NCBI GenBank assembly: GCA_949538025.1
Contig: CATISI010000088.1
Span: 1 to 38,929, forward strand
Direction: 5' to 3'
DNA: 38,929 bases
From: Candidatus Poseidoniaceae archaeon
GTDB lineage: Archaea; Thermoplasmatota; Poseidoniia; Poseidoniales; Poseidoniaceae
A program made the position numbers and the translations under genes. A model generated the notes under the pieces. The model ran no database searches. It was not told the DNA's origin and was given only the letters and a program-made list of their open reading frames with translations. This document shows positions 6,001-37,044 of the stretch, in pieces. Numbering within the stretch: the first letter of the stretch is position 1; the number at the start of each line of letters is the position of its first letter.

Positions 6001-9000
6001 TGAAGAAATTAAGGTCGAGGATTCAGACTTGACATTGGACTTCACATACTCGACCTCGGTTTGGGTCAACGGTTCTATTGACGCTCCGAACACAGCTGGA
6101 TTTACCTACGAGGAGTGGCTTGCACTCGCTGCAGAAGAGAAACTGTACGAGAATGCAAGTTCAGTTCCAGTTACCTTCCACGGTAACGGACTGGAATTTA
6201 CCACGATTACGGATCAATTCGGTGAGTTCAGTCAGCGCTTACCTGCTGATATGACCTTCAACCTCAATGCGCAAAGTTCCGTATCGAGCTTCGCCGTTGG
6301 CTCTTCTGTCGTTGTATCCGAAGGAATGGCTGATTTAGATGCCTTAATTCTCGAGCCAACCGTGGACGCTGTAGGTGCAATTTATCTGTTCAACAACGAG
6401 ACAAGTTGGAATCAAGATATTCCGAACTACGAGCCTGTTGAAATTCATGCAGAAGGTGAAGATGGTGTCGTATGGACAACGACATCCGATGGAGATGGTC
6501 TGTTCAACATGCAATTGCTCAATGGAACTTGGACCTTCAGTATTCCTGCTGCGGAGTACAATGCAGCATCCGTTTCGGATTACATCGTCAACGTTCAAGA
6601 TGGCATGAACCCAGAACCTGTGAGTTTGATTACAAACCCTGCAAACAGTACTGTGACTCTCAACGTCTTCACCGATTTGGGAGATGGTGTCTTTGAAAAT
6701 GGAACGGCTGTCCGCCCTGATATACAGTTAATTCCTGTATCTGTAGTCGGTGAAGGTGTAAACATCACTTCGGACGACTACAGCGAAGACGGAATTGTTG
6801 AGGTTGTTTTGAGCCCAGGTATCTATGCCATTTCGACCAATAACTTGGACGCATCAGATGAAAACGCAAGTGATGCAAGTCTCGAGGTCAATGCTGTATT
6901 GGACATTATTCCAATCGGTTTGACTGGTCCTGAAGAACCAGTTCTCGTTCCAATCGTTGATGCATGGCGCATGAACGGAACAATCTCATGGGCCAATGGC
7001 TCTGCAATGGTCGAGAACTTCTTGCTCTCCACACCAGATGGTTCAGATTACGTCCCGATCAGTGTTGATGAAAATGGAACCTTCGCAGCCTACGTGCAGA
7101 GCGGTGATTACATTGTCGTGGTTGCACCACTACTCAACGGAGATGGTGTCACAGAATCACTGCGTATGCCAATCACCATTGGAGACGATTCCAGTGTTCG
7201 CACTGAACTCGCACTTTCACTTGTCGAGGCTGTCGAAGTCTCGCTCACCTTGTTGGAAGCGGGTACAGAATCTGAACTCTCTGGAAAGAAGGTTGTCCTC
7301 GTCAGTCATGATGGCTTTGGTAATATCACCATGAATCCATCCGATGCTGATGGAAACGCATCACAATTATTGATGCCAGGAACATGGAGCCTCTACATGA
7401 ACGAGTCCGCAGCACAACGCTACTGGACGCTCGATACATCCGATGCTCCTATCTTGATCGACGCAAACACCTCGCTTGGCGATGTGTATGCAGAATTGGA
7501 AGTTGAAATTGGTGGAAAGGCTTACTGGGATACCGATGAAAATGACATCGCAGATGGCAACGAAGGTGTCGAAGGCGCTGATGTTACCATCCAAGGTGGA
7601 ATCATCGACACGGTCGTGACAACAGACGCTGACGGTGTTTGGCGAATCTATGTCCCAATCCTCGAGAGCTATTCTGTTACCGTCGCAAAGGACGGATTTG
7701 GTGTCGTATCGTACGATGACAATGATACAGGGATGTATGTTGTTGACAATGAACCTGTTTCACAGGATATCGAAATGTCAGCAGCAGAAGTCACCGTAAC
7801 AGGGACCATCACCGATGTTCTTGACGCCTCCCGATTGGATGGTGCAACCATCACACTCTACGGAACCTCAGAGAATCAACAAGATGCTGTTGAAGTTGTT
7901 GGAGTTCTCGTTGATGAGACGCTTTCATTCACAGCAGTTGTTGAACCCGGACAATGGGTTGTCGTTGTTTACGAAGATGATGCACCGTTCAACGGCGGTG
8001 GTGTAGCAGTTGGATTGCTTGAAGCTGAAGTACAGAATGGCGGTTCAATTGAACTTGTTATGAGCAAGGGTGGTTGGGTTGATGTATCAACCGAATTCAC
8101 TTCGTTCAACCTACAGACCTTCAATGCTGGCATGGGCGATGCTTCATCACCTGTTGCAGATGTTGTTGATATCGAAGTTGACCTTGGAGATGGACGTGTT
8201 TGGGCCCTACCGTTGGAATCCGACGGTACACTCGAAGTCCTCCTCCCAGCTGAAGCAGCAACATTCAACTCGGAATTCTCAACCGTTCAGCGCGATTTGA
8301 CCATGAACTACACCGCCGGTGTTTCGATTGACAACGGTGACGAAGGCCGAACCTCGGTCATGCTTTCCTACAACAGAAAAACGAACAGCGACCTAACGCT
8401 CACTGTCGACTCGGTTACAGGAGCCACAGTACTCGGAGATGAAAACCGTGATTTGCTCGCTGTTGTGGACACAAGCGACGACGCCAACTACACGGCCATT
8501 GAGTTCGATGTCCTCGCACAATACGGTGGAACTGAGATTTCAGATCCGTTCGAAGTGACCGGTACAGTAACCGTATCGCCTGACCAAGAAGATTGGTCTG
8601 TTGAATTCTACAACGGTACGGATTGGGTCAGCACATCCAACGTTCAGCTTGGCATTGGTGACGTTGCAGAGAACGCAACGCTCGAAGCTACGCTGCGTGC
8701 ACGAATTGTTCTGCCATCTGTTGAAACGGCATGGTGGCTTGAAAACGGTCATGACATCAACATTCGATTCTCTGCCGACAGTGGAGATATGACGGAAGTT
8801 TCGCTCAATGTCGAAGTCCCTCAAACCTACGGATTCAACACAACGGATGTTACATCCACGGTTGGTGTTGCACCTGGTGGTACTACCACTGCGTCCTTGA
8901 CTATCAACAACAACGGTAACGGTGATGACTCCTTCACGTACGAAGTGCTTGACAACCTGCCAGATGGTTGGACGGTAACTCCAATGAATGGTGTCACCAC

Positions 9001-9595
9001 GATTGCTAAGGACAACATGCGTGACCTTGCATTCTCTATAACCGGTGCGCCTTCCTTCGATGATGGTAAAGTTACTGTCACCGTTCGAATTACAAGCGAG
9101 GATGGTGTGACGCAAGAAGATGTTAAGATAATTGTTGAATCTGCTCGAATCGTGTTGAGCTGGGATCAAGATATCTCCACATCTCGAAGCAATATCTTGG
9201 CAGACGTTGAACCAAACACTCTCGTGATTGTCATCGAGAACAGTGGTCTACGTCCAGCGCAACAAGTGACGATTTACCTTGATAGCAAGGGAATGTCAGA
9301 GATGAACATGACACTCAACGTTCCTGCAGAAGGTTCAACAGACTTCGAATTTGTCTTGCCGAAGGCGAGCCAAGGAATCACTCGATACGACGTACGTGCA
9401 GAAATCCTCGGTGATGATGCCAATTACTCGACCAACAATGTTGATGGGGATTTCCCGATAGAGTATGTGGTGCAGGGTTCGGAAGAGACATCCAACCCGA
9501 TCGTTATCATCGTCATCATTGCTTTGACCTTCACCATTCTGTACTTCGGATTCAAGGCGTCGTCTCGAGTCCGTGGCGCTGGTGGACGATTCTGA
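44..9595 (+). CDS. aglB: Giant (3183 aa) membrane protein: archaeal oligosaccharyltransferase AglB/STT3 core fused to a ~2100-aa extracellular beta-sandwich-repeat extension with a terminal TM anchor
   Basis: Uninterrupted ORF with ATG at 44, preceded by GAGGG (32-36). STT3 hallmarks in the translation: GGSDPWYMKR (D410, nt 1271-1273), ADHDSF (D523-H524-D525, nt 1610-1618) and WWDYG (aa 982-986, nt 2987-3001), set among many hydrophobic helices. The downstream part is acidic and rich in N-x-S/T. It has recurring carboxypeptidase-regulatory-like and CARDB-like signatures, e.g. SGTVMTEDDGLGLPNARILIERD...TDADENGDWSF and NTLVIVIENSGLRPAQQVTIYLD. It ends with the hydrophobic helix NPIVIIVIIALTFTILYFGF plus the basic tail KASSRVRGAGGRF. 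Confidence 0.85.
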   Translation: MEKVSKTSQRPVLSWLIAPLAVLIAILANYVDGLMSIDVELNNDAMMPVIITGVAGLLAVTPRILRQLGSLPESISQTQISLAMFVIALVGAGVAESQTDGFVGFTFLAVLFGGYLLDTRERYEWTTMLVFAGVGVHSAFDIAAAAAVDGYLPNTYEFTGGQSYDVSTFQETALGFVFFTWFTVFPIIGLLVGVAGRGVLNPAGDKGWFSYNTVESGWNRQALPLQIALFVWAAAHLATIWHFDQGSIADRLRLGGLGGVEANGFVGYYSALLTGIVAIIVSGMVAERWYTRAMTLSSLWVLFQIGSWLEAGFWTNETFEESWAPLIWLAITFFVGVAISLIGNHEKYGGWSNRESHRPSGARQFWNAHWASLLTVVAFLVGLVIRIQWYAVPSMHALGTDGFDMTGGSDPWYMKRVVDYILAQNAHLVVDADRFYPIGGINPRPPLFSWSLAIGAMVLQPFLGEDAVWWSMLALPAIYGALTILPVAAIARDHFGKAAGVIAAWLIAFMPAHVTHSTWGLADHDSFVMLFIAIGFMFYLRAVKYAGSERLVRATSIRPFDMLRAMGAVAQERQYAMANAVLAGVAFGAASLGWKGFVVGPAILFLAYAAQVALNMFRRRDSTILSTLFLTMLLTNLLIALPFYAHPQMNLMLDGSGLQPFLFILLFTIVMMYITTGFRDKPWLLVLGTLAVGAVAFLGALWVLKYFNLSNAWDVLFTGGGYFTKTKIFGTVAEANAPDRGYMFASFGPIVFVFALVVGLTSLWRTFSKRSQISLVFAVWIFAASYMSWTAARFLFNATPVVAIMGAAGIVGFWKWADWDSLVRTWRRAGIRTPSERIAGARRAVWRTPSFSAVVLVLIMLSGQQLTYGLDSAIPSNSPAEGDLDESFYYSVPDIMRWDGLGVSVLDSRDYEAFGGRAYMGSFGSGFNGQYWNDAHEWLANQDKYHEGVSTKDDCDTHNGIWISDSGLCEMKFGDKPAFVSWWDYGFQALNTGEHPSVSDNFQTGIPTSGNMLLARSQIDLVAMFIQHLAVADITYNVGKSGDKAFTPAFESALKNGLENAEQIEELELVMLQDGMDFDDMIEVLTDRSFEAFKNKGDTYMTRGYPLDANGIPDKSIGLHYRVWSDGELIPCDNPSTEFCFNGDYVSEDSANSTFRNNADVSSTEVSDVTHYTFGDYWYTADLVEEYDSVSTSIHRQNALIALVVQLLTKGLDESQVVDLYHDIIGLEFNYEVQDYNGAPGETIERDHEIRYFAIDDKLYPRAGRYNSEAGYNGGRPLGIFGAPTILSGQDYNTFTDEVYETKRGDQPVREMDREAVDEAMLKDVLDQQSGADIEPLTVQDIRVDHLPEFFDTMLARSYVGYGASTLGADAGSTNPQPRQQLSESSRGTSFLQQAYPLPGAMMNHFVIANWYDPETPAILANANVKVMKYYSGAEISGTVMTEDDGLGLPNARILIERDAFSGEGAEDLDEDTYWIPIGVTDADENGDWSFLAPAGKIRVSAFAGVYDDTLVLQDIQSGEFVDGFGDVLTETNDDREVYAITAILGEVANMTWLGETTINVTGAQADRDPNAPATADMDIEVQSTGVSGTVTWSGYGDFDGEPLVETDFILRNIWAMTENYTMTTTNGSFETDETRVLQGTGEVTFSDVGTFTSEGVALAYDFTGNFTREISDARVFAGNGTWIGKGTIEATWIEHDNASLDCGENNTMPENATLCLISEGTDFSTYLLDGEVMASGRLTSDGVSTLMKELDGETFEGTGIFEGVGTLNGTGLFIGPGTFSGDIVNPGSFYQTGLVPGVYNMIALMPNGREILLPDPVEVGIEPSFDLAMTLPASLFADQLTTMSGEAIPNQDVQLIDVALGEDEMVTITSDDEGNVSYGPITAGEYYVRVDLDDDGFYELNQTLQVFDEPMNFTFDTGVPEMYDLTITLNGPEGFDVSGLEVNFTDPLGLLPISVVSDENGVVYVELPVGEWSASDNSDEDYILIEEIKVEDSDLTLDFTYSTSVWVNGSIDAPNTAGFTYEEWLALAAEEKLYENASSVPVTFHGNGLEFTTITDQFGEFSQRLPADMTFNLNAQSSVSSFAVGSSVVVSEGMADLDALILEPTVDAVGAIYLFNNETSWNQDIPNYEPVEIHAEGEDGVVWTTTSDGDGLFNMQLLNGTWTFSIPAAEYNAASVSDYIVNVQDGMNPEPVSLITNPANSTVTLNVFTDLGDGVFENGTAVRPDIQLIPVSVVGEGVNITSDDYSEDGIVEVVLSPGIYAISTNNLDASDENASDASLEVNAVLDIIPIGLTGPEEPVLVPIVDAWRMNGTISWANGSAMVENFLLSTPDGSDYVPISVDENGTFAAYVQSGDYIVVVAPLLNGDGVTESLRMPITIGDDSSVRTELALSLVEAVEVSLTLLEAGTESELSGKKVVLVSHDGFGNITMNPSDADGNASQLLMPGTWSLYMNESAAQRYWTLDTSDAPILIDANTSLGDVYAELEVEIGGKAYWDTDENDIADGNEGVEGADVTIQGGIIDTVVTTDADGVWRIYVPILESYSVTVAKDGFGVVSYDDNDTGMYVVDNEPVSQDIEMSAAEVTVTGTITDVLDASRLDGATITLYGTSENQQDAVEVVGVLVDETLSFTAVVEPGQWVVVVYEDDAPFNGGGVAVGLLEAEVQNGGSIELVMSKGGWVDVSTEFTSFNLQTFNAGMGDASSPVADVVDIEVDLGDGRVWALPLESDGTLEVLLPAEAATFNSEFSTVQRDLTMNYTAGVSIDNGDEGRTSVMLSYNRKTNSDLTLTVDSVTGATVLGDENRDLLAVVDTSDDANYTAIEFDVLAQYGGTEISDPFEVTGTVTVSPDQEDWSVEFYNGTDWVSTSNVQLGIGDVAENATLEATLRARIVLPSVETAWWLENGHDINIRFSADSGDMTEVSLNVEVPQTYGFNTTDVTSTVGVAPGGTTTASLTINNNGNGDDSFTYEVLDNLPDGWTVTPMNGVTTIAKDNMRDLAFSITGAPSFDDGKVTVTVRITSEDGVTQEDVKIIVESARIVLSWDQDISTSRSNILADVEPNTLVIVIENSGLRPAQQVTIYLDSKGMSEMNMTLNVPAEGSTDFEFVLPKASQGITRYDVRAEILGDDANYSTNNVDGDFPIEYVVQGSEETSNPIVIIVIIALTFTILYFGFKASSRVRGAGGRF
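1139..3340 (+). other. STT3/AglB catalytic core region (canonical TM1 through the WWDYG-containing external domain). Boundaries are approximate.
   Basis: The helix ASLLTVVAFLVGLVIRIQWYAV is followed directly by the DPWY..R loop motif, then a DHD motif, multiple TM helices, and WWDYG at nt 2987-3001. SDNFQTGIPTSGNMLLA sits where the DK/MI motif is normally found. Boundaries were judged by eye. Confidence 0.7.
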
Positions 9596-15358: not shown

Positions 15359-17872
15359 ATGATTGCTAAACCTGGCGTGCAGGAGAAGGTGCTGTTGCAT
15401 CTTCTCGACTATGCTGATTTCAAAGAGAAGGTGGAAGTTCCTTTTGCACTCTCCCAAATGGGAATTGCCAATGCCGTGGCAATCGCGCGTTCCAACGTTC
15501 CACGGGCCATTTCGGGTCTAAGAGATCAAGGTCTTCTGGTTGAACGGCAAGCCCATGTGCAAGGTGTTAGCCGAAAACGCAAGGCCTACTTTTTAACAGA
15601 CGCTGGAATCATAGCCGCTGAAGAAACGTGGGGGCGTCTTCGTGATTTTCAATTTCGTTGCATCAACGTCGATGGTGAAACAATCTCAACATCACTCGGT
15701 GCTGCTCATGAGGTCTTGCCCTTCACAATGCGACCGGTTGATATCATACGTTATCTTGATGACAACCTTATCCTTGATGCTCGTTCTCTTTCAGAAGATC
15801 TCATCGAGCGTGATTTGTCAAAGCAAGTCGAGAAACAACTGGTCACTTCTCTCGGAGATCTACCAAGATTACGACACTTCTATGGTCGCGAAAAAGAACT
15901 CGATAATATGGTGAATCTGTTGGACGCACGTGCAACCACATTGATGATTCCTGGTATTGCAGGGATTGGTAAAACAACAATCGCTGCGAAGTTGATTGAA
16001 CGCTTCATGCATCGTAGAAATTTGCTCTATCATCGCTGCCAGGATTGGGAAGGTTCTCGTGCCTTGTTTGAATCCATAGCTGAATGGTTGCTCAACATTG
16101 GCGATTCATCGTTTGCTGATTATCTGGCAGCAACACCTGTGCCTAAACCAGACGATGCTGCACGAATTCTCATTGATTCGCTTGAGAACACACCGACGCT
16201 CATCGTCATTGATGACTTCCACAAGGTTTCGGATGCTATCCTCTTTCAAACCATTCAGTCAATGACGCTTGGGTTGCTTGGAAGTGAAGAATCGATTGGC
16301 CTCGTCATCTTTTCTCGCTCGTTCAAACCCGTTGTTCCAACCAAAGATGCTGAAGGTCGAATCACGAGTCTCGTCTTACCACTTGACGGACTTGACTCCG
16401 ATTCAGCAAGAAATCTTCTCACAGGGTTCGAAGACCTGTCTACTGAACAGTGGTTGCACATTCATGGATTGTCAAGAGGCCACCCACTCGTTCTCGAATT
16501 GATCAACCGCGGTGCATCTGCAGGCGCCTTCCACGATACCCTCGAACATTATGTCACGAAGGAAATCTTTTCCAAACTCTCTGCTGAACAGAAACGTGTT
16601 TTGACTGTTTTATCCATCTTTAGAGAATCCGTTTCACTCGATGCTTTACTCGCACACGAGTTGGACATAGACGTCCTGGGAAGTCTTGTCGAGCAAGGAC
16701 TCGCACGTCAGGTTGATGCCGACGTATACGATGTCCACGACTTGATTCGAGAGTTCCTTGTTCGGAGTATCGATGAACAAACCAAGCAATCTGTTCACAG
16801 TACCTGCGCAACTTACTACAGCAAATTGAGCAAATCATCAGAAACAACCTTGGAGCAGATCTATCACGAACTCGCTTCAGAGCGACAACAGGAAGCGATC
16901 GAAAAGATTGTTGAATTTGGTCGTCAACTTGTTTCACAAGGTCATCTTGAGTTGCTCAGTCTGATAGAAAGTGTAACAATCGACCGTCTTGATGCATCCT
17001 TGATGGCTCCAATGATGCAACTTCAGGGCGATATTCTCCTGATGCTTGGACGATTTGAGCAAGCATCATCCATCTTCGAGACTGCAAGCAAGGCTGCCAA
17101 AGAGTCCAATCTCCCGGTCGTCTATTCCGAGATTCTTGGATCGCAAGCAGACATAGCCATGAAGCAAGGGCAAACCGACAAGGCTCTTTCATCGCACAAA
17201 GAAGCCCTCGAGGTCCAGGTGGAACTTGGTGATGCGAAAGGAGCTGCACGCACCTACAACAACATGGGTTATCTGTACCGTAGAAAGAACGACCGTGCTA
17301 AAGCCCTGGAAGCATATTCCGAAGTTGAAGCGATTATCAGCAGTGATGATTCTTTGCTCAGTGCACAGATTATTCTTGGGCGTGCACTACTGGATCTCGG
17401 AGAAGTTGAACGTGCAAGAAGACATGCGTTTGAGGTGTTTGAACGGACCGACAAAGCTGATGATTTGCTTGCACATGCACGAGCACAAGCCTTGCTTGGA
17501 CGATATCACGCCAAGATGAACGATGCAGAAACATCGATGCATCATTACACGGAATCGTTGAACATCATGTCCGATGTCGGTGATCCAATTTCGATGGTTG
17601 AATTGATGATTCTCCTCGGTGAAGTCCTTGAAGACAGTGGTCGAAGTGAAGAAGCACTCGAACGTTATCGAGAAGCCCTCATCATTGCAGAGGCCAACGA
17701 TCTTCGAATGCAAATTGGCGAACTGCTTTCAAAACTTGGAGGCGTTGCACCAGACCGACAACGTCGAATGGAATACCTTCAGAGAGCACTGGCCGTATTC
17801 CGTGAATTGGGTGCAAGGACACGCATGCGTGAAGTTCAATCACAAGTTCACTCTGCGATTATGGGCCGTTAA
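15359..17872 (+). CDS. STAND-type signal-transducing regulator: N-terminal winged-helix DNA-binding domain, P-loop NB-ARC-like ATPase, C-terminal TPR array
   Basis: ATG at 15359 is preceded by GGTGA and lies 13 bp after the upstream stop. MarR-like wHTH: QMGIANAVAIARSNVPRAISGLRDQGLLVERQ...KRKAYFLTDAG. FYGREKELDNMVNLL is followed by Walker A GIAGIGKTT (nt 15953-15979). Walker B is LIVIDDFHKV. A GxP-like element is HGLSRGHPLVLELI. TPR-like repeats include ARTYNNMGYLYRRKNDRAKALEAYSE and EEALERYREALIIAE. Confidence 0.85.
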   Translation: MIAKPGVQEKVLLHLLDYADFKEKVEVPFALSQMGIANAVAIARSNVPRAISGLRDQGLLVERQAHVQGVSRKRKAYFLTDAGIIAAEETWGRLRDFQFRCINVDGETISTSLGAAHEVLPFTMRPVDIIRYLDDNLILDARSLSEDLIERDLSKQVEKQLVTSLGDLPRLRHFYGREKELDNMVNLLDARATTLMIPGIAGIGKTTIAAKLIERFMHRRNLLYHRCQDWEGSRALFESIAEWLLNIGDSSFADYLAATPVPKPDDAARILIDSLENTPTLIVIDDFHKVSDAILFQTIQSMTLGLLGSEESIGLVIFSRSFKPVVPTKDAEGRITSLVLPLDGLDSDSARNLLTGFEDLSTEQWLHIHGLSRGHPLVLELINRGASAGAFHDTLEHYVTKEIFSKLSAEQKRVLTVLSIFRESVSLDALLAHELDIDVLGSLVEQGLARQVDADVYDVHDLIREFLVRSIDEQTKQSVHSTCATYYSKLSKSSETTLEQIYHELASERQQEAIEKIVEFGRQLVSQGHLELLSLIESVTIDRLDASLMAPMMQLQGDILLMLGRFEQASSIFETASKAAKESNLPVVYSEILGSQADIAMKQGQTDKALSSHKEALEVQVELGDAKGAARTYNNMGYLYRRKNDRAKALEAYSEVEAIISSDDSLLSAQIILGRALLDLGEVERARRHAFEVFERTDKADDLLAHARAQALLGRYHAKMNDAETSMHHYTESLNIMSDVGDPISMVELMILLGEVLEDSGRSEEALERYREALIIAEANDLRMQIGELLSKLGGVAPDRQRRMEYLQRALAVFRELGARTRMREVQSQVHSAIMGR

Positions 17873-18339
17873 AACATGGGTCGGTCGAGTTCAATGGAAA
17901 TCACTCCATTGTAATAGACGACCCAAATGGATTCAACCCCTGCGAGATTGACCAGGCCACTGTGTGGTGCAGATGCAGTGCCAGACAACGAGCGTTCAGT
18001 TCCCAATTCACCTTGCTCATCGTAGAGAATCAATGATGTATCTGTTAATTCCAATGTGAATTGCGATTCGTCGGCTTCCGTAGCTCGCCAGTAAACGCGT
18101 TCTGCGTAGGATGAATTGTCAATTCGACTGGCAACATCCGTACGCTCAATGGCAGCCGATAAATCGTTCATATTGGCATCAATGGCTTCCTCATTCCAGC
18201 GCTCTCGTGTCGCAGTTTCAATGTCATAAATCCACAAACTGAACATCGTAAGGAGCAACACGCCGAGCAGAAATGTGAACACATATCCGAGTTCAGTTGC
18301 GGCTGCCTCTCGATTTTGTTGCAAGGTTGATGTCTTCAA
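17869..18339 (-). CDS. Small (~156 aa) pilin-like protein with a class III signal-peptide-like N-terminus. Proposed TTG start.
   Basis: The track ORF (to 18504) would overlap the upstream gene by 169 nt. An in-frame TTG at 18339-18337 lies 4 nt after GGAGGTGA and overlaps the upstream TGA stop (TTGA). The resulting N-terminus is (M)KTSTLQQNREAAATELGYVFTFLLGVLLLTMFSLWIY: a short polar leader followed by one hydrophobic helix. Confidence 0.6.
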   Translation of the reverse strand: MKTSTLQQNREAAATELGYVFTFLLGVLLLTMFSLWIYDIETATRERWNEEAIDANMNDLSAAIERTDVASRIDNSSYAERVYWRATEADESQFTLELTDTSLILYDEQGELGTERSLSGTASAPHSGLVNLAGVESIWVVYYNGVISIELDRPMF

Positions 18340-20522
18340 GCAATCACCTCCGATACATGTGCATCGAGCGAGGAGATTTGCAGTGAGAATTGAATGGGTT
18401 CTCCCGCCGTATGCCAGACGGATTCTACGGTTCCAAATCCTGGGTCTGGGACCCAACCGACATAGTCTGTCAGAAGATCCAATCGGCCAGGATAGATGGT
18501 CCAATCTTCACTCGCTTCAAGACCTTGGGTGGAGGTTGCGGCAATAGCTCCTCCGTAAGGTTCTGCCCATCCACGACGTACCTCATAGGCAACATCACTT
18601 GCAAGCGATGTTCGCTTCGTTAACGTCACCTCCATGGCAAGTATGCCTCCTCCCACAGCAGAGTCACTGGTCGGATGAAGCGCTGGAATTGTTGCAGCAA
18701 ATCGTGGTCCTGGGCCACCTCGGTCCGCAGGTGCAACCAAGACCGTCGGCTTGTATTCTGGGTGATTGGTTAAGACGGCACCACCACTCATAGCAACTTC
18801 CATTCCCGTAACAGAGGACTCAAAGCCATAGACGAATCGTGAAATCTGCATGACCCAAGCAGAACCGATTGGGGTGTAAGGTTCCTCAACGATTAGGCCA
18901 TACAGTTCGATGTGCAAACTCGCAGGATAATCACCCGTTTTCCATGCTTCTTGCAAGTCAGCGATGCTGCGACCACCCATGCTCGTCCATGGCATGGTTA
19001 GGTCGACCCAACCAGATGCAGTGACGTCGATAGAGACGCAGCGTCGTGCACCTTCATGGATGCTGTCCAGAAGTCCAATCGAACCGTGATCGGCAAAGGC
19101 ATAGACGCCGTGACCTTCCTCGGTTTGAACGTTGATTTCTTGGCCATCGACGGAAACAATCAACGATTCACTCTGATTAAGTACAGTCTCGTTTTCGGAC
19201 AGCGTCGAGATATTCAATATCGTTTGATCTCCATTGCTCTTCAACTCGAGATTGAACGCGCTTGAAGTGTTTGAATGAACCCGTAATCCCGATTCCATTC
19301 CAGTATCAACCGCTCCAATTTGGTAAACACCAACTGGGGATGATGCTCCGGTCCAAATCACTGAAATTGGTTGTTCACTTTGCAACATACTAGCACCATC
19401 GAGGTCAACAGGAGGCCATGCAACGCTGTAACTGCTCAACTCGTCAATGGTCACACCAGACCCTCGCCATGTCACCGTTGCTGGTTCCTCGTTCGGATTA
19501 GAGAGGAGAAGGAATCCTTCCTTTGTTGGAGGAATAAAGGACGTCCCGTGTATTGAACCTGTAAGGCTCTTCCATGTTGCTGTACCCTCTCCACCAATCG
19601 TGATCAACAACTGGGCATCGGTCGTGGTTGTGATGTGAACGACTTGAGCTACATCGATGGACATGGCCTTGCTCCAACTCGTTCGCACACCAACGAGATC
19701 CGATGGAAGGGCCACCTCTGTAAAGTCACCAAATGCCCCGTTTCCGTGAACCATCATGACCTCCTGTGAAACAATGTTCAACTGAACATTGCCCATTGGT
19801 AGTGGTAAAGCCCACGACCGTCCAAGTCCATTCGCATTCGCATCGGTGGCTCGAACCTCAGTGGTGCCTTTTCCATCTCGCATCCAATAAACGACGAGCT
19901 CTTGGCTTGATTCAATCGACCAATCTGCACCGTCAAGTTCCCATTCTTGAACATCATCGACGAACAATTCAGCAGACTGATCGACCAAACCGTTGCGGAG
20001 CAGTTCCACATCGATTGGTCCAAGAGGAAAGCTCAATCCAGGTTTGGTTGTAAGTATCACACCGTCTGCCCAATCTGGAGCGTCGTAATGGTACGGACGA
20101 TCGGGCCCGAGCCTTAAGTCCGAGAAGCAAGCGGTTGAAGTTCTGGATTCGGGGTGCTTCAACTTCAGTGTATCATCAAAATCGAGAACATCTCGAATTC
20201 GGAAGGAGTGGTCCTCTTGCCAAGTTGAAGAATACCACATGCCACTACGCATCATGTCCCATGCGAGGGAGCCATCAACTGGAACAAACTCTTGGGTGAC
20301 CACATCGCCAGGCATTCCTTGTTCGGAGAGTGTCGTTGTTTGGTGATTGAATTGCGTCATCTGTGCAGACATATCATGTCGCTCAACGCTGCCTTCCAAT
20401 TCCTCGATAACAGGAATCATTGTGAGCATCATCAGGCTGATGATGGAGATGACTCCACCAAACAGCAGCACGGTCGCAATAGCTGCTGACACGGCCTCCT
20501 CGTCACGATGCAACTCCATCAT
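18336..20522 (-). CDS. Large (728 aa) pilin-like protein: archaeal class III signal peptide plus a ~690-aa extracellular domain of unknown fold
   Basis: The N-terminus is MMELHRDEEA/VSAAIATVLLFGGVISIISLMMLTMIPVI, i.e. a charged leader, Ala, then VS... and a hydrophobic helix, as in archaeal Pilin_N/DUF1628-type proteins. GGTGA lies 4 nt upstream of the ATG. The start overlaps the upstream stop (ATGA at 20519-20522). Confidence 0.8.
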   Translation of the reverse strand: MMELHRDEEAVSAAIATVLLFGGVISIISLMMLTMIPVIEELEGSVERHDMSAQMTQFNHQTTTLSEQGMPGDVVTQEFVPVDGSLAWDMMRSGMWYSSTWQEDHSFRIRDVLDFDDTLKLKHPESRTSTACFSDLRLGPDRPYHYDAPDWADGVILTTKPGLSFPLGPIDVELLRNGLVDQSAELFVDDVQEWELDGADWSIESSQELVVYWMRDGKGTTEVRATDANANGLGRSWALPLPMGNVQLNIVSQEVMMVHGNGAFGDFTEVALPSDLVGVRTSWSKAMSIDVAQVVHITTTTDAQLLITIGGEGTATWKSLTGSIHGTSFIPPTKEGFLLLSNPNEEPATVTWRGSGVTIDELSSYSVAWPPVDLDGASMLQSEQPISVIWTGASSPVGVYQIGAVDTGMESGLRVHSNTSSAFNLELKSNGDQTILNISTLSENETVLNQSESLIVSVDGQEINVQTEEGHGVYAFADHGSIGLLDSIHEGARRCVSIDVTASGWVDLTMPWTSMGGRSIADLQEAWKTGDYPASLHIELYGLIVEEPYTPIGSAWVMQISRFVYGFESSVTGMEVAMSGGAVLTNHPEYKPTVLVAPADRGGPGPRFAATIPALHPTSDSAVGGGILAMEVTLTKRTSLASDVAYEVRRGWAEPYGGAIAATSTQGLEASEDWTIYPGRLDLLTDYVGWVPDPGFGTVESVWHTAGEPIQFSLQISSLDAHVSEVIA

Positions 20523-21559
20523 GCATTCACCGCCAATCGTCGTACGTCGATCTCAAGGTAGAGGGGTTGACCCTGTGTTTCCACCGTTAAACCGTCGCTT
20601 CCACTCGCTCTCTGGTACGGAGTGATTCCAACGAATTCACCAAGTGTTCCTGATGCCCGACTAATGGTGTACTCGTTGAGCCAAGCTTCGTGGTACTGCG
20701 GGTCGATGACGGAATGGAGTGTGTTGGTGACCTTGATTTGAAGGTTGTACGATTCACCCGTAAACAATTGAATTGGTCCAAGGGATTCGACCTTGAATCC
20801 AACGTTTGGACCATTCCCAAGCGCATTGCCCAAACGGAGGTCTGTAAGAACTATTGAAAGTCTTGTGGAGCCATCGACCAGTGTATCAAGGCGCAACTTT
20901 GGTGCCTCTTCAATGGTCCATGAGGTTGTCGGATCTCGAGAAATCCTCGCATCGTTAATCAATGCAATTTGGTTCATTCCTCCATCGATTGCTGTGTTGA
21001 TACTCAGGCCTGAAAGAACGAAGCGTGACCATCGGTGGACATGGTCACCTCCTGCATTGTAGAAATCGATGATGAGAAATGCTTCACTGTCCATGCTGTG
21101 ATCTAGGGTTGTCCATTCGAACGAAGGTGTAACAGTAAACTGAGTTGTATTCTGAACGGCTTGTACAACCACATTCGTCACAGATTCATTGAGAGCCATA
21201 AATTCAAACGATGTTGCATTCAATTCGTTTACTTTGACCACTTCGAGCGGCGATAAATCAGCGGCAATCGTCCACTCTTCGACAAGATTCGCAGGATTGA
21301 TTGAGGACGATTTTAAGGACAGAGCTTGGCGTGTACCAGTACCATCTGGTGCATCACCAACAACATCGATACGGTCTTCAATTCGGTCTGCAATGTTACT
21401 GGCACTGTTCCAGTTGGTGTTGTCGTGAAACGCAACCAAGTATGGATTGAGGAAAATCCAGACGCCGCCCATGATTGTAATGACCATGGCAAGCATCATG
21501 ATGACGCCGAGGATTTCACTAACGGCATCGTCATCTTCAGCAGTTCTACGCCGACGCAT
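20519..21559 (-). CDS. Pilin-like protein (346 aa) with an archaeal type IV pilin N-terminal signal
   Basis: The N-terminus is MRRRRTAEDDDA/VSEILGVIMMLAMVITIMGGVWIF. This closely matches the archaeal pilin N-terminal consensus ((D/E)(R/x)AVSxVIGVILMVAITV). GGGGAGG lies 5 nt upstream of the ATG at 21559. Confidence 0.85.
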   Translation of the reverse strand: MRRRRTAEDDDAVSEILGVIMMLAMVITIMGGVWIFLNPYLVAFHDNTNWNSASNIADRIEDRIDVVGDAPDGTGTRQALSLKSSSINPANLVEEWTIAADLSPLEVVKVNELNATSFEFMALNESVTNVVVQAVQNTTQFTVTPSFEWTTLDHSMDSEAFLIIDFYNAGGDHVHRWSRFVLSGLSINTAIDGGMNQIALINDARISRDPTTSWTIEEAPKLRLDTLVDGSTRLSIVLTDLRLGNALGNGPNVGFKVESLGPIQLFTGESYNLQIKVTNTLHSVIDPQYHEAWLNEYTISRASGTLGEFVGITPYQRASGSDGLTVETQGQPLYLEIDVRRLAVNA

Positions 21560-21625
21560 CTTGGCCTCCCCTTATTCTACGTAGTTCTTCGGCTGCATTT
21601 AGGCATTGACCTCAGGGTTGCTGTT

Positions 21626-22619: not shown

Positions 22620-25600
22620 GTGATTGTATTGCGTAGGAGCCAGACCACTTTACTCACCTCCCTTGCTGTGATTGCAGGGCTGCTGTTCATGTCGCAGTTC
22701 CCTGTCATCTCCCCCGTTTCGAACGTTCATCCTGATGATACATTCGGCGAAAAACCGCCAACAACGGACACGGACGGAGATGGCATTCCAGATGTTCACG
22801 AGAACATTTTCGAAGAGTGGATTAATTTCTCTGCCGTCGATGGACGCCTCGTAACGATGAAGGGTCTCGACAAAAGCGATGCATCGGACGCTGATTTTGA
22901 TGTTGATCGAGACGGACTAAACAATACCGAAGAGTATTGTTGGCCTTATCCCGACAATTGCAACGATCCCGGTTTTTCACGAGGTCTAACAGGAACACTT
23001 GATGAGAACGGCGACAGAATCTACCTCGACCCTCGTGTCTCTGACACAGACGGAGATGGTATGCCCGATGGATTTGAAGCATGGATGTGCGATCGTGCAG
23101 GTGGTTTTGATGAAGTGACGCAACGTTATGTCTGCCCATACTTCGACCCATTGAACGCAAGTGACCAAACCGATGACCCAGATGAGGATGGTTTCGATGT
23201 CAATCGCGACGGATTCCTCACGGTTGCAGAACAGTACACTTCTCCAGAAGAATATCGCTACGGTATGCCAGGGAATTTCACCCACGAATTGGATGGATTA
23301 TGGTGTTCAGCAACGCTTCCACAAGGTTCCGTTTTGACACAGTGGCCATTCATTACCAACGGAGCGAATGCATCCTTTGTGAACATTCTACCAGCCTGTA
23401 CGAGCAATGCTACTGGTGTTGTTGGTGAAGACCTTTGGCTAGGGACCGACCCGCTGCTTGACGATTCGGATCGCTATAGTTGGGACGGTTTTGCGATTCG
23501 TCCACTTTATCCCTCGTTTGGAGATGGAATGCCGGATGGTTGGGAAGTACACTTTGGACTCAATCCATTGAACCGCTCAAACGCTTTGCTCGACGATGAC
23601 CGAGACGGCTGGGATTTGAATCGAGATGGACTCGTTTCTGCTGATGTGAGTCGGACCGACACAGCCATTGCACTGGGTGAATCATTGTCCAACCTTGAGG
23701 AATTTTACACGCACAACGACGAAGGCAATACCGTACGCTCGGGTCTTCGAGAGGTCCAATTGGGCGTGAATGATTCATCGTTCAAGGAGTATCCTTTGAT
23801 ATTCAATGCCATACCCGGATCTCTTTCTGTTATGCACCATGATGTTCGAAGTATACTCGTCGAGGGTTCGACCGGGTATTATCTGACACGTTACGGGATG
23901 ACAACGATTGACTACGAAACAGAAACAACCCAGGATCAGTGGTTCCCGCAAGGAATTACCGGATACGAAGCAGCCTTTGTCGAATCTGAGAACGGTCCAC
24001 ATTCAGTTGCTATTGCAACTTCACATGGAATACATGTTGCTGCTTTGCAAGTCGATGGTTTTGTCGAACCAATCGAGTCGTGGTCTTCAACAGAAGCAGT
24101 TGAGGTCTTCGCTCTTCAACAACTCGCTATCGAAGGTTCAAGCCAACAACTCATTGCATTGGGTTCCAACGGCGATGGTATGGTTGTCGAAGTAAATGCA
24201 GGCGGTCAAATCACACAAACCTACGAACTTGGATCCAATTTGAAGTCCGCTCTGATGCAAGACGAAGTTGTTGTTACTGAACTAGAGCATGGAAATGTTC
24301 CGGGTGGTGGCTTGGTGCTTTACATTGGTACAGAGCGAGGCATGATGACACTAGAATCTGCCACAGGGCGGGACGATGCTTCCCCGACATGGAGATTCTT
24401 CTTCGACGCAAATCCCTCGAACATCCCGAACAGGATTGATGATTTGAGAACGCTCAATCTCGGTGCGACTGGAAATCCAGCAGAGGTCCAAGCCCTTGTT
24501 CTTGATGGTCCTAATCCTCAAAATCCAACCGCTCTCTGGATTGGTACTCCATCTGGTTTGCATCGTTTGAATCTCGAACTGAACGATATGTCGTTTGGGG
24601 ATCTCCTTGAGCATCCAGGTGGCGATGCAGACGAACTCGCAAAATCCAACAATATTCATTCGATCTATCCGACGGGTAATGAAATCCTTGTTGGTTCATC
24701 CGACGGTTTGTGGGTCCTTGCAGGGAACTATCTGGATGTCTATGGCCTCCAATCCAATTCCGAAATGCCCGGTGAAATCGCATCCATTGCCATCATGGAG
24801 CGTGATGGAGAAACCTACATCCTCGGTGCATCGGCACCTGGTCGGTTTGCAAATTTGGAGCTCATGGACCCGGGTGCGAACGATTCAGACAGTGACGGAA
24901 TGCCTGATGGGTGGGAGCTTGCTTACGGTTTAGACCCAACCGATCCATGGGATGCACTTCTCGATGGAGATGTCGATGGACTCCGGTTGAATGGAGGCGA
25001 TGAAATCGATCGTTGGTGGACCAACCTCGAGGAATATCGCTACGTTGCACGAACTGTAGACGGCTACAATTCTACCATGCCCAATCAGAGCGATTCCGAC
25101 ATGGATGGCTTGATGGATGGTGCCGAATTCTTTGGCTACTACCTTAGTGAAACAAATTTTGATTGTTACTACACTCCACAACTGGTTTACACCTGCGACG
25201 AAGCCTTAGGTGAACAAGCAAGAACGACCTACAGCAGCCTGAACTCGATCGATGTCGGTACCGATCCAACCGTGCTGGACACGGACGGAGATGGGATGCC
25301 CGATGGGTGGGAGATTGAACATCGTCGATGGGTTGGCAACTCCTTTACCGGTGGGAACAATTGGTCGCTTGATCCAACACGTGCAGACGATGCGGCGTGG
25401 GATGCTGATCAAGACGGATTAGCAAACTTGTGTGAATATCAATGGTCGCTTGTACGAAAGGCCGGTCTTCAAGGGGACTTGTTTGAAGAGTTTGGCGAGT
25501 CTCCTGAGGCGGTTGCAACGTGGTCTGTCCCAGATCCGAACCTCGTTGATTCAGACGGTGACACCTTGCCTGATGGTTGGGAAGCTGATGCTCAATGCAC

Positions 25601-28370
25601 ATGGTCACCACTCCGCATCGGTGTGAACCCATTGAATGGTTCGGATTTATTTGAAAACCCTGATGGTGATGGGTACGATGTCAACAAGGATGGTGTTCTC
25701 ACACAGAATGAGATGTTTGTCAACTACCTTGAGTATCACATTCGCTCAGGTCTCTTCTTGGATAATCAAACACTCGATGGCATGGAAATGCCGAATGGTT
25801 TCACGACAGATTTGTTTGACAACATTTCTGATTTCGGACTTCCAGAGGCTGATTTCGCCTCTCGAGCGAGCGGTGCAATCCTTGCAGGCCAAATTCCAAT
25901 TGAAAAGGGTTCGACAGATCCGTTCAGTGCTGATTCCGATGAGGATGGGATGCCGGATGGTTGGGAGATTTGGTTCGCACGATGGAACGTTATTGATGAT
26001 GAATGGACACTGAATCCGCTGCAACCGAGCGATCGATGGCTTGATGCAGATGACGATGGGATGACCAACTGGGAAGAATACAATCTCATTGATTCAAGTC
26101 TATCCGAAACGAACACCAATCGTTCATCGCCCCAATGGTTTGTCACCACGCTTGGCTCGGCCTATGCATTCCAACAGTGGCCTTCAGCGTCGACAACATA
26201 TTCCTTTGGTACCTACATGACCTCGGACCAGTACAATCTCACTGGTCCAACAGGTGACCCAAACAACGTTGATACGGATGGAGATGGCATCATCGATGGG
26301 CTTGAGTTGCTGTTCACTGCATGGAACATTTCTGCTCAAACATGGACATTGAACCCAGTCGTTGCAGGCGATGGTACTTTTGACAGCGACAACGACGGAT
26401 TGGTCGATTTGCAAGAATTTGCCCTTGCGACTTCAAACCCAGAGAACGGAATTGATGCACCAGCAGATGCTCCACTGCTTCACGAAGATGGGGACGTGCA
26501 ACAGCCAACGAAAAAGGCGCAACGAGTTTTCCAAATTCTCATATCAAAGGATTCCCGTGGAAAGCGATTGTTGGACGATTTCAACGCCTGGCAGTCCGGT
26601 GAACCTCCGAATGTGTTCATTTCTCTCCTCCTAGGAATGACAGACCCTACCAACCCGGATACCGATGATGATGGCATGTACGATGGTTTCGAGTATTGGT
26701 TCACTTCATGGGATTTGAACGAGAATCGATGGGGATTGAATCCACTGATTGAGACCGACGTCAATCTTGATTCGGACGGTGATAGTTACGATTGCAACCG
26801 AGACGGAACCATTGACCTGGACGAGCGCTACTCCAACCTGCGTGAGTGGGAAGCACGAACTTGGGGCAAGTACCTGAATAGAACCTCAGTACCTGCTTCT
26901 GTTGGTATCGTGGACTTCGGCGAGGATGCTATGAATGCGTACATCGAAGAAACAGGCATGACCATCTTGCAAGCTCGCCAAGCCTTGATTGATGACTTCA
27001 TGGCGAAAGGACCTGAGTCTGTGAGCCGAATGAGCACCATCAATTCCTTCAATGAAAACAACTTCAACCGAACTCTAGTCGGTGTATCCGACCCAACGCA
27101 TCCTGATTCTGATTCCGATGGAATTCCGGATGGCTGGGAATATTGCTACGCCCTTTACGGTATGGACAATCCAACAACTGAAAACCATTGGGCCGCAAAC
27201 CCACTGAATCCATGGGATGTGAACTATGACGGTGATTCAGACGGCTGGTATGACCGGACTGCGTTCGATGTACCTGCACCACAAGGCGAATGGTCCGATC
27301 GCGTCTTTACCCCCTCCTCGCAAGTGGTCCAGCCTGGCATCGGTGACCTACCGTTCACCAACTGGATGGAGTACGACAACGACACGCGCCCAGATTCCAA
27401 CGATAGCGACAGCGACTCTGAGTCGTTCATTACAGAAACGATGAACGGTATGGTCACCGCACATTACCAAGATTTCAATCTGACAGATGGACGTGAAGTG
27501 TTCAAGTATGGTACGAACCCAATGGACAACGACACGGATGGCGATATGATTCCTGATTGGTATGAGTATGCCAAGGCTTGGAATGAATCCAACGACAATT
27601 ATTCATCGTTTTTGCAGATTCGAGTTGATTGGATCGATCCCGGTACTGGCGGACCTTGTGACACCTCGACGAATTCATGTTTACCTTTGTCGTTGGATGC
27701 TGGAGTCCTTGGCCGTCCAGACCTTTCCTACACGTGGTTTACCATGGATCCCAGAGATGCAATCGATGCCAACGAAGATGCAGATCAAGATGGAAATTGG
27801 GATTGTTCTGGTGTCGGTTGTGTGTATGAACCCTACACAAATTTCCAAGAGTATTTTGCCATCACGAGCGAGCAACTATCAAGCCCGAATGCCGTACGCC
27901 TATCCGGCTTGACCTACCAAGGTGAGGTTCTACAAGAGGGATGGCAGTTGCGTGCACTCTTGCTGGGTTTGGGCCAGTGGGATGAGGGTGTGAAGAACTA
28001 TCTCAAGATGGACAAATCACAGAGTTCCGATTTCCGTTATGCCTACATCGTCAACGATAACGATGTCGATTTCCTTGTTCAAGATGCATCCAACCACGTT
28101 GTACTCAGTGGTGGTAATCTCACCGATCCTTGGGAGATTTACTACACGGGCGCTCCGAATACCGCCCCAGTACGTGCCGTTGGGGAGCACGAATTCGGAT
28201 GGTATCTCTTGGACTACAACGATGATCACGTCGCTGAAGGAACCGATCCTACCAATTGGGATACGGACGGCGATTGGATGGTAGATTGGTTCGAAGTCAA
28301 CGATGATGAACAGGACGGAAGTCGGGGTGAAACTTCTCCAATCCGGTACGATTCACGTCAAACCACATAG
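22620..28370 (+). CDS. Giant (1916 aa) secreted or N-terminally anchored protein built from thrombospondin-type-3-like calcium-binding repeats, with a central propeller-like region
   Basis: An in-frame TAG at 22617 excludes any earlier start, so the start is GTG 22620 or TTG 22629. The N-terminus is RRSQTTLLTSLAVIAGLLFMSQF. At least 13 DxDxDGxPDGWE-type units were counted by eye, e.g. DTDGDGIPDVHE (from nt 22767), DTDGDGMPDGFE, DSDSDGMPDGWELAYGLDP, DTDGDGMPDGWEIEH, DSDEDGMPDGWEIWF, DSDSDGIPDGWEYCY and DTDGDWMVDWFE. Reg_prop-like strands (LWIGTPSGLHRLN, ILVGSSDGLWVLAG, LYIGTERGMMTLES) occur at about aa 380-760. Confidence 0.85.
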   Translation: MIVLRRSQTTLLTSLAVIAGLLFMSQFPVISPVSNVHPDDTFGEKPPTTDTDGDGIPDVHENIFEEWINFSAVDGRLVTMKGLDKSDASDADFDVDRDGLNNTEEYCWPYPDNCNDPGFSRGLTGTLDENGDRIYLDPRVSDTDGDGMPDGFEAWMCDRAGGFDEVTQRYVCPYFDPLNASDQTDDPDEDGFDVNRDGFLTVAEQYTSPEEYRYGMPGNFTHELDGLWCSATLPQGSVLTQWPFITNGANASFVNILPACTSNATGVVGEDLWLGTDPLLDDSDRYSWDGFAIRPLYPSFGDGMPDGWEVHFGLNPLNRSNALLDDDRDGWDLNRDGLVSADVSRTDTAIALGESLSNLEEFYTHNDEGNTVRSGLREVQLGVNDSSFKEYPLIFNAIPGSLSVMHHDVRSILVEGSTGYYLTRYGMTTIDYETETTQDQWFPQGITGYEAAFVESENGPHSVAIATSHGIHVAALQVDGFVEPIESWSSTEAVEVFALQQLAIEGSSQQLIALGSNGDGMVVEVNAGGQITQTYELGSNLKSALMQDEVVVTELEHGNVPGGGLVLYIGTERGMMTLESATGRDDASPTWRFFFDANPSNIPNRIDDLRTLNLGATGNPAEVQALVLDGPNPQNPTALWIGTPSGLHRLNLELNDMSFGDLLEHPGGDADELAKSNNIHSIYPTGNEILVGSSDGLWVLAGNYLDVYGLQSNSEMPGEIASIAIMERDGETYILGASAPGRFANLELMDPGANDSDSDGMPDGWELAYGLDPTDPWDALLDGDVDGLRLNGGDEIDRWWTNLEEYRYVARTVDGYNSTMPNQSDSDMDGLMDGAEFFGYYLSETNFDCYYTPQLVYTCDEALGEQARTTYSSLNSIDVGTDPTVLDTDGDGMPDGWEIEHRRWVGNSFTGGNNWSLDPTRADDAAWDADQDGLANLCEYQWSLVRKAGLQGDLFEEFGESPEAVATWSVPDPNLVDSDGDTLPDGWEADAQCTWSPLRIGVNPLNGSDLFENPDGDGYDVNKDGVLTQNEMFVNYLEYHIRSGLFLDNQTLDGMEMPNGFTTDLFDNISDFGLPEADFASRASGAILAGQIPIEKGSTDPFSADSDEDGMPDGWEIWFARWNVIDDEWTLNPLQPSDRWLDADDDGMTNWEEYNLIDSSLSETNTNRSSPQWFVTTLGSAYAFQQWPSASTTYSFGTYMTSDQYNLTGPTGDPNNVDTDGDGIIDGLELLFTAWNISAQTWTLNPVVAGDGTFDSDNDGLVDLQEFALATSNPENGIDAPADAPLLHEDGDVQQPTKKAQRVFQILISKDSRGKRLLDDFNAWQSGEPPNVFISLLLGMTDPTNPDTDDDGMYDGFEYWFTSWDLNENRWGLNPLIETDVNLDSDGDSYDCNRDGTIDLDERYSNLREWEARTWGKYLNRTSVPASVGIVDFGEDAMNAYIEETGMTILQARQALIDDFMAKGPESVSRMSTINSFNENNFNRTLVGVSDPTHPDSDSDGIPDGWEYCYALYGMDNPTTENHWAANPLNPWDVNYDGDSDGWYDRTAFDVPAPQGEWSDRVFTPSSQVVQPGIGDLPFTNWMEYDNDTRPDSNDSDSDSESFITETMNGMVTAHYQDFNLTDGREVFKYGTNPMDNDTDGDMIPDWYEYAKAWNESNDNYSSFLQIRVDWIDPGTGGPCDTSTNSCLPLSLDAGVLGRPDLSYTWFTMDPRDAIDANEDADQDGNWDCSGVGCVYEPYTNFQEYFAITSEQLSSPNAVRLSGLTYQGEVLQEGWQLRALLLGLGQWDEGVKNYLKMDKSQSSDFRYAYIVNDNDVDFLVQDASNHVVLSGGNLTDPWEIYYTGAPNTAPVRAVGEHEFGWYLLDYNDDHVAEGTDPTNWDTDGDWMVDWFEVNDDEQDGSRGETSPIRYDSRQTT

Positions 28371-35424: not shown

Positions 35425-35476
35425 TCTGTTGCCAATTTGTCACCAAAATCAAGAACAATCGACTCTAGGACAAACC

Positions 35477-36966: not shown

Positions 36967-37044
36967 GTTATGAGGATAGGGAAACGGCTTTTCAACCTGC
37001 TTGTGAATGTGAAGTATCAAAACAGATTTGCTACAGAGCAGCCT

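Follow-up and report, generated by a model that had tools for sequence, protein, structure and literature searches.

Three consecutive genes of a Poseidoniales archaeon encode pilin-like proteins that, on balance, probably form a minor-pilin or tip-adhesin set for a type IV pilus-like filament, a set specific to the order Poseidoniales and assembled in trans. The genes, called P1, P2, and P3 here, lie on the minus strand of a 38,929-nucleotide (nt) contig of Candidatus Poseidoniaceae archaeon (CATISI010000088.1, assembly GCA_949538025.1); "the window" below means this whole stretch. An original prediction, made by reading the sequence without database searches, had described the three genes, and its N-termini, coordinates, and sizes all proved exact. 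The trio and its translation signals are laid out as follows (aa, amino acids; ORF, open reading frame; AF2, AlphaFold2).

21565..21571, minus strand: GGGGAGG, Shine–Dalgarno-like motif upstream of the P1 ATG
20519..21559, minus strand: P1, pilin-like protein of 346 aa, ATG start (ORF)
20519..20522, minus strand: ATGA, 4 nt shared by the stop of P1 and the start of P2
18336..20522, minus strand: P2, pilin-like protein of 728 aa, ATG start, large all-beta ectodomain as predicted (ORF and AF2 model)
18344..18351, minus strand: GGAGGTGA, Shine–Dalgarno-like motif within the 3' end of P2, 4 nt upstream of the P3 TTG
18336..18339, minus strand: TTGA, 4 nt shared by the stop of P2 and the start of P3
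17869..18339, minus strand: P3, pilin-like protein of 156 aa, TTG start at 18339 (sequence and start)

The overlaps ATGA (20519–20522) and TTGA (18336–18339), which had been taken to imply a fixed stoichiometry, are real, and such 4-nt overlaps are conserved in about 90% of the loci compared. At the P1/P2 junction, 92 of 99 distinct loci have a 4-nt overlap and seven have a 1-nt overlap; at the P2/P3 junction, the 4-nt overlap was found in 84 of 92 loci. The internal starts (P2 and P3) are preceded by motifs of the GGAGG or GGTGG type in divergent lineages. P3 orthologues of most other lineages start with ATG, compared with TTG in the window. As the 4-nt overlaps and the Shine–Dalgarno-like motifs are kept across loci, translational coupling of the trio is, judging from the sequences, a conserved feature. 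The overlapping starts and stops suggest that P1, P2, and P3 would be synthesized in a roughly fixed proportion.

The N-termini of all three proteins follow a single pattern that is kept order-wide: a charged leader, a small residue at position −1, and a hydrophobic stretch. The P1 leader, MRRRRTAEDDDA, is followed by VSEILGVIMMLAMVITIMGGVW; the P2 leader, MMELHRDEEA, is followed by VSAAIATVLLFGGVISII; and P3 begins with MKTSTLQQNREAAATELGYVFTFLLGVLLL. The charged leaders are 10–13 residues long, and the hydrophobic segment that they precede is the only one in each protein (aa 10–44 in P1, aa 9–42 in P2, aa 12–41 in P3). Putative cleavage sites, marked here with an arrow, are ..DDDA↓VSEILGV.. 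in P1, ..DEEA↓VSAAIAT.. in P2, and ..EAA↓ATELGY.. in P3. Across the order, the surrounding motifs are nearly invariant in P1 ([A/G]↓[V/L]S[E/D][I/V][L/I]G..ML.AM) and P2 (A↓[V/A][S/N][A/S]A[I/V]ATV..F.G) and invariant in P3 (AATE[LI]GY..TFLLG, with the putative cut at A↓ATE[L/I]GY..TFLLG). In each of the three proteins, conservation is highest over the first 30–60 residues. This would fit a helix that has to contact the peptidase, the platform, and the core of a filament; it would fit a plain membrane anchor less well.

Models of known pilin N-termini matched the P1 family, in every case within its first ~60 residues. Among 23 diverse P1 orthologues, 17 were matched by DUF7289 and 17 by Pilin_N (PF07790), and two orthologues, P0251 (27.7 bits) and P0343 (28.7 bits), exceeded the DUF7289 cutoff. 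Many P1 orthologues in databases carry a precomputed PF23960 match, and some orthologues are named "flagellin-like protein" or, in one source, "FlaG/FlaF family flagellin". The model matches are near or just above threshold, and the pilin-like (class III-type) N-termini proposed in the original prediction are supported. When the three families were aligned to each other with hhalign, similarity was limited to the N-terminal helix, and thus, P1, P2, and P3 are not recent paralogues. A literature search found no paper on DUF7289, DUF7266, or related names.

AF2 models cover P1 and P2. The P2 model, which is confident (predicted local distance difference test score, pLDDT, 85; predicted template modelling score, pTM, 0.85), consists of a helix at residues 3–68 followed by ~50 beta strands, and the P1 model, which is fair (pLDDT 74.8), consists of a helix at residues 7–68 followed by Ig-like beta domains. 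The helix-plus-beta shape predicted for both proteins is that of type IV pilins and archaellins. No domain had been recognised in the extracellular parts at the outset, and this held true when they were searched systematically: the ectodomains of P1–P3 have no Pfam or NCBIfam domain, and profile searches with the three families against PDB sequences returned nothing significant, the only related row being Natrinema PilA2 at E = 2. Foldseek searches against the PDB returned generic beta-sandwich, Ig, and FN3 folds, with no specific match for P2 (template modelling, TM, score ≤ 0.12) and only such generic folds for P1 (TM score ≤ 0.19 on the query). Conservation of P2 peaks in the N-terminal 60 aa and at aa 571–720. 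Its C-terminal 150 residues, which carry the motifs GGAVxTNHPE, DRGGPGPRFAATIP, and SEDWTIYPGRLDLLTDYVGWVPDP, equal the N-terminal helix in this respect, and its middle is variable (aa 150–300 and 390–480).

The trio consists of real genes and is conserved as a unit within the order. In a first scan, which took one genome per GTDB species and the loci sharing P2 peptide words (n = 57), P1, P2, and P3 were intact and in the same order in all 57 loci as far as the contigs reach, including the original Marine Group II (MG-II) genome CM001443.1. A broader pattern search detected P2 in at least 223 species-level genomes. An exhaustive search of 1.84 billion representatives yielded 110 clusters of the P2 family, whose full-length members measure 680–770 aa with identities down to 27–29%. 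As the clusters are few and every named member belongs to the Poseidoniales, P2 represents an order-specific family. The most divergent trios, from basal MGIIa.1 and from MGIIb (MGIIa and MGIIb being subgroups of MG-II, with the window's archaeon in MGIIa), comprise the same three genes and retain the 4-nt overlaps. Contigs with the Poseidoniales block are also present in public metagenome-assembled genomes (MAGs) that bear the titles Salipiger bermudensis, Rhodobiaceae bacterium, and Verrucomicrobiales bacterium (loci L007, L018, and L094); these contigs look mis-binned.

Within the order, the trio behaves as a discrete presence/absence cassette. It is located between the gene of an HTH-STAND-TPR protein (STAND) and that of an MBL-fold hydrolase (MBL), and the STAND gene was found in 414 species-level loci, compared with 223 for P2. 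We assessed the 80 loci that are closest to an MGIIb STAND protein. Both STAND and MBL were present in 73 of the 80. In 25 of the 73, the two genes are 3.8–4.1 kb apart and the trio fills the distance; in the other 48, all MGIIb, the distance is −14 to +33 nt and the trio is missing, with the beta-helix gene and the gene of the giant protein with thrombospondin (TSP) repeats retained. The trio is present in MGIIa and basal MGIIb and absent from the derived MGIIb loci examined.

Since 48 MGIIb genomes keep the neighbours without the trio, the MBL, STAND, and giant proteins are independent of it. The same result bears on a proposal of the original prediction, a "pilin-anchored surface assembly", read here as a pseudopilus that anchors or exports the adjoining giant proteins (the 1916-aa TSP-repeat protein, the 1806-aa protein, and the 1463-aa beta-helix protein). 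Strict synteny of the ~38-kb block across the order would suit such a role, as would the lack of a C-terminal anchor in the 1916-aa protein. Against it, 48 MGIIb species keep the beta-helix, STAND, MBL, and TSP proteins in order with no trio among them, and we know of no need for a type II secretion-like piston in single-membrane archaea. We disfavour the pseudopilus as very improbable.

A scan of the window's sizeable ORFs detected no domain of the FlaI/PilB, FlaJ/TadC, or A24 peptidase type, confirming the original prediction on this point. In published data, all MGIIa genomes carry the archaellum operon (Rinke 2019; Tully 2019), with flaB, flaH, flaI, and flaJ in all MGIIa (Rinke 2019; Orellana 2019), and additional flaI/flaJ/tadC genes have been described (Orellana 2019). 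A genome lacking any prepilin peptidase would be hard to reconcile with pilins; such a lack is not borne out in relatives, where FlaK (preflagellin/prepilin peptidase) is annotated in 83 genomes (90%) of MGIIa and in 26 (16%) outside it (Tully 2019 Suppl. Data 10). A literature search combining Marine Group II with prepilin peptidase found no paper. A PilA-type DUF1628 pilin is among the top-transcribed MG-II genes in the Red Sea (PMC5069720), which indicates that a major pilin exists elsewhere in MG-II genomes.

We then compared the presence of the trio with the flaI/flaJ status of MAGs in Tully 2019 Suppl. Table 3, matched by MAG name. All 35 trio-bearing MAGs traceable in that table were flaI-positive (30 directly and five via a representative with >98.5% average nucleotide identity). 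Three of the nine trio-less MAGs were flaI-positive (SP88 and UBA36 of MGIIb.14, and UBA557), and RS392, SP3063, ARS1134, Guaymas22, UBA89, and UBA220 were flaI-negative. For this association, Fisher p = 1.2e-5, uncorrected for shared ancestry. SAT95 and UBA124, members of MGIIa.5 whose P2 is 80% identical to that of the window, are flaI/flaJ-positive. The trio and flaI/flaJ were found in the same genome in SAT95, UBA124, IN961, EAC30, and SP3024, and by the accessions given, the two lie on different contigs in SAT95, IN961, EAC30, and SP3024. In SAT95, for example, PAJM01000030 carries the archaellum operon and PAJM01000007 carries the trio.

Two details are the most informative as to which machine the trio goes with. 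SP88 possesses a complete archaellum operon and UBA36 possesses flaI, flaJ, and one archaellin, and neither has the trio; hence, an archaellum can do without it. Conversely, PF01917 archaellins are missing from the UBA59 clade, in which the trio and flaI/flaJ are both present, a pattern that ties the trio to a FlaI/FlaJ machine and not to archaellins. This phyletic pattern weakens the view that the trio is an archaellum accessory replacing FlaC/D/E or FlaF/FlaG, which would accord with the "FlaG/FlaF" label given to an orthologue by one source and with the archaellum operon being present in all MGIIa genomes. P1–P3 match no archaellin or FlaF/FlaG family, and the trio and the archaellum operon are on different contigs. 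FlaF/FlaG (ArlF/ArlG), which form the archaellum stator, do combine a pilin-like N-terminal helix with a beta-sandwich and are in the size class of P3; the trio differs from them in lacking a family match, in lying outside the archaellum operon, and in a distribution uncoupled from archaellins. The trio is not a FlaF/FlaG member, and an accessory role in the archaellum is quite improbable.

The UBA59 clade can also be read in another way, in which one protein of the trio (P1 and P3 being the most plausible) serves as the major subunit of a filament of its own and the others are its accessories, making the trio a complete pilin set. The absence of PF01917 archaellins from trio- and flaI/flaJ-bearing genomes is compatible with this, and major pilins have been predicted inside multi-pilin operons, e.g., arCOG03926 (Makarova 2016). 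Tight translational coupling, however, would speak against a large excess of one subunit, and MG-II archaea are known to express PilA-type DUF1628 pilins at a high level from other places in the genome. We consider a major subunit within the trio improbable.

Several observations weigh against assigning the trio to a filament at all. P1 of the window scores below the curated cutoffs of Pilin_N (22.9 bits, cutoff 25.2) and DUF7289 (15.9 bits, cutoff 27), as well as that of TIGR02537 (13.6 bits, cutoff 20); P2 has a faint DUF7289 match only, and P3 has faint DUF7266 matches in four of 23 orthologues. The sequence evidence for pilin identity lies at or close to the curated thresholds. Archaeal signal peptidase III sites are described as typically carrying a positively charged residue at position −2 (PMC3387779). 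In P1, many orthologues have R at this position (DERA, DSRA), whereas the clade of the window has D and others have S or G, and in P2 it is E, D, N, Q, or K across orthologues. In many lineages, it is acidic or neutral (D, E, S, G) and not K or R, and P3 has no charged −2 residue whatsoever. Archaeal pilin structures were not among the Foldseek matches of the P1 and P2 models. As for the phyletic association, it involves few independent clades and MAGs that are 55–85% complete; "trio-less" refers to the STAND–MBL locus only; and the machinery was assessed via close relatives and published tables (Tully 2019), not the window's own genome.

Part of this evidence would suit a membrane complex that forms no filament, with P1–P3 anchored by their helices, uncleaved or cleaved yet unpolymerised, and fixed in the envelope or pseudo-periplasmic space, in principle like FlaF/FlaG or the Sulfolobus bindosome. 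The non-canonical −2 residues and the lack of a clear cleavage motif in P3 point in this direction. So do the large ectodomains, the location of the trio within a highly conserved block of envelope genes, and the likely 1:1:1 synthesis, which suits a complex more than a polymer. On the other hand, conservation is highest in the N-termini, which also match models of pilin N-termini, the trio never occurs without flaI among the MAGs that could be cross-checked, and the envelope neighbours persist without the trio. Weighing both sides, we regard a static complex as possible, if unlikely, and favour the minor-pilin or tip-adhesin set.

That reading has precedents. The original prediction had pointed to the large size of the proteins and to the absence of nearby machinery. 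Both facts stood, but neither is unusual, as euryarchaeal type IV pili include pilins of 250–960 aa and pilin operons remote from the ATPase, platform, and peptidase genes (Makarova 2016). Pilin genes lie outside type IV pilus operons in most archaea, and archaeal ATPase/TadC modules often serve trans-encoded pilins (Makarova 2016). Since trans-encoded pilin operons have been described, the absence of nearby machinery is ordinary. The arCOG02911 pilins are all-beta proteins of 250–550 aa (Makarova 2016). In Archaeoglobus fulgidus, a stand-alone operon (NC_000917, 678040–683939) comprises six overlapping pilin genes, one of them encoding 959 aa (Makarova 2016 Table S4). Its families are arCOG06117, 04652, 06552, 03926, and 02911 (twice); its flanking genes encode ribosomal proteins and TFE, and the FlaI/TadC pairs and FlaK are hundreds of kilobases off (Makarova 2016).

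The euryarchaeal "clade 2" type IV pilus sets, such as the A. fulgidus operon and the H. volcanii PilB4-type set, are the closest known systems. They share with the trio a run of pilin-like genes with overlapping ends, members of very different size (~100 to 959 aa), and, for the A. fulgidus operon, no adjoining ATPase/TadC genes. The trio has three genes rather than six, is restricted to the Poseidoniales, and has no detected sequence similarity to that operon beyond the N-terminal helix; arCOG02911 and arCOG03926 were compared with it by published description only. The trio would work like the trans-encoded euryarchaeal multi-pilin operons and probably belongs with them.

Outside this group, small, medium, and large pilin-like subunits are co-made in the bacterial type II secretion system (GspI-GspJ-GspK) and type IVa pilus (FimU-PilV-PilW-PilX with PilY1), and the largest subunit caps the fibre. 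These tip and priming complexes are analogous, and not homologous, to the trio of 156, 346, and 728 aa, which has archaeal-type N-termini and neither an outer membrane nor a type II secretion context. The EpdA, EpdB, and EpdC proteins of Methanococcus maripaludis are much smaller than P2. They, too, are three minor pilins with class III signals, all required for piliation and distinct from the major pilin, and they are served by a dedicated prepilin peptidase, EppA (Makarova 2016). We found no sequence relation between the Epd proteins and the trio.

Taking these lines together, we propose the following course of assembly. P1–P3 would be synthesized as proteins whose short charged leader precedes a conserved hydrophobic helix at the N-terminus, and would be inserted in the membrane. 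A FlaK/PibD-type prepilin peptidase may then trim the leader, and an ATPase and platform of the FlaI/FlaJ(TadC) type, encoded elsewhere, may extract the proteins from the membrane and assemble them. Being co-produced, as the overlaps suggest, the three could form a roughly 1:1:1 complex, held together by the conserved helices and the conserved C-terminal domain of P2. This complex would prime or cap a type IV pilus-like filament in the manner of a minor-pilin initiation or tip complex, with the variable beta-sandwich middle of P2 forming an exposed and probably adhesive head. The major subunit of the filament would probably be the PilA/DUF1628 pilin.

The neighbouring genes in the window are listed below; those from the AglB/STT3 fusion to the 1806-aa protein form the block in which the trio resides.

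44-9595, plus strand: AglB/STT3 fusion of 3183 aa
window neighbour: S8 subtilase
window neighbour: beta-helix protein of 1463 aa
convergent with P3: HTH-STAND-TPR protein of 837 aa
21626-22546, same strand as the trio, upstream of P1: MBL-fold hydrolase
22620-28370, plus strand: giant secreted protein of 1916 aa with TSP repeats
window neighbour: giant secreted protein of 1806 aa
window neighbour: metalloprotease-like protein
35261-36460, plus strand: C15-NUDIX fusion, a single ORF with pyroglutamyl peptidase (C15) and NUDIX hydrolase domains
36745-38067, plus strand: GT2 glycosyltransferase

The order of the block (AglB-type giant, S8 protease, beta-helix, HTH-STAND-TPR, trio where present, MBL, 1916-aa TSP-repeat, and 1806-aa protein; 44–33809 in the window) was constant in all ~280 Poseidoniales loci fetched (L001–L281, to the contig ends), with or without the trio. 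Order-level conservation over ~38 kb is striking. The stop codons of P3 and of the convergent STAND gene overlap by 4 nt (17869–17872 in the window). The 3' ends of STAND and MBL abut likewise in trio-less MGIIb (−14 to +33 nt; L232, L234–L281), a spacing that leaves no space for terminators. We considered the MBL gene as a member of the trio operon, given that it lies on the same strand with a gap of 16–66 nt, and rejected it: it is kept in trio-less genomes, and it is replaced in the P0132 clade. There, the place upstream of P1 is taken by an unrelated gene of 244 aa that runs in the opposite direction (L199, 7569–8303), with a gap of 700 nt between the two.

Several of the neighbouring proteins have features of their own. 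The 3183-aa AglB-type protein has an STT3/AglB oligosaccharyltransferase core at aa 405–1018, many transmembrane segments in its first 860 aa, and a ~2100-aa extracellular tail with a CarboxypepD_reg domain and a C-terminal transmembrane segment. It far exceeds ordinary AglB in size, and an orthologue of 3146 aa is present in the divergent clade of L199. The 1916-aa protein, which has no Pfam match at E ≤ 1e-3 in addition to having no C-terminal anchor, is rich in calcium-binding-type repeats of the form DxDxDGxPDxWE (thrombospondin type 3-like by eye). At the other end of the window, a 234-aa ORF (36454–37158, minus strand) with a faint RNA_binding match overlaps the start of the GT2 ORF by ~400 nt; the start of one of the two ORFs is probably wrongly assigned.

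What is known already is that archaeal type IV pili have large and trans-encoded pilin sets, and the trio fits this. What is new is modest: an order-restricted trio of families whose ectodomains have no detectable relatives, and a cassette-type distribution that follows flaI and the split between MGIIa and basal MGIIb on one side and derived MGIIb on the other. This distribution parallels the pattern of flaI, flaJ, and flaK and the split in algal-oligosaccharide use (Tully 2019). A further-reaching idea, which we offer only tentatively and do not expect to hold in full, is that the trio is a self-contained adhesion module, FlaI/FlaJ-dependent and unique to the Poseidoniales. The P2 head would then be a receptor-binding adhesin that sets the lineages associated with particles and algae, MGIIa and basal MGIIb, apart from derived MGIIb, where the trio would have been lost. 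In the UBA59 clade, the FlaI/FlaJ machine would have the trio as its chief substrate, yielding a pilus that consists of giant pilins or is capped by them.

No member of the Poseidoniales, the most abundant archaea in the waters of the surface ocean, has ever been cultured. Their attachment to particles or algae has so far been deduced solely from genes of the archaellum, of thrombospondin-like proteins, and of flotillin. As the adhesive end of a pilus-type filament in these archaea, the trio, which sources list as hypothetical or "flagellin-like" proteins, is a concrete candidate, and, owing to its clean presence/absence pattern, it could serve as a marker and as a target for expression and structural work.

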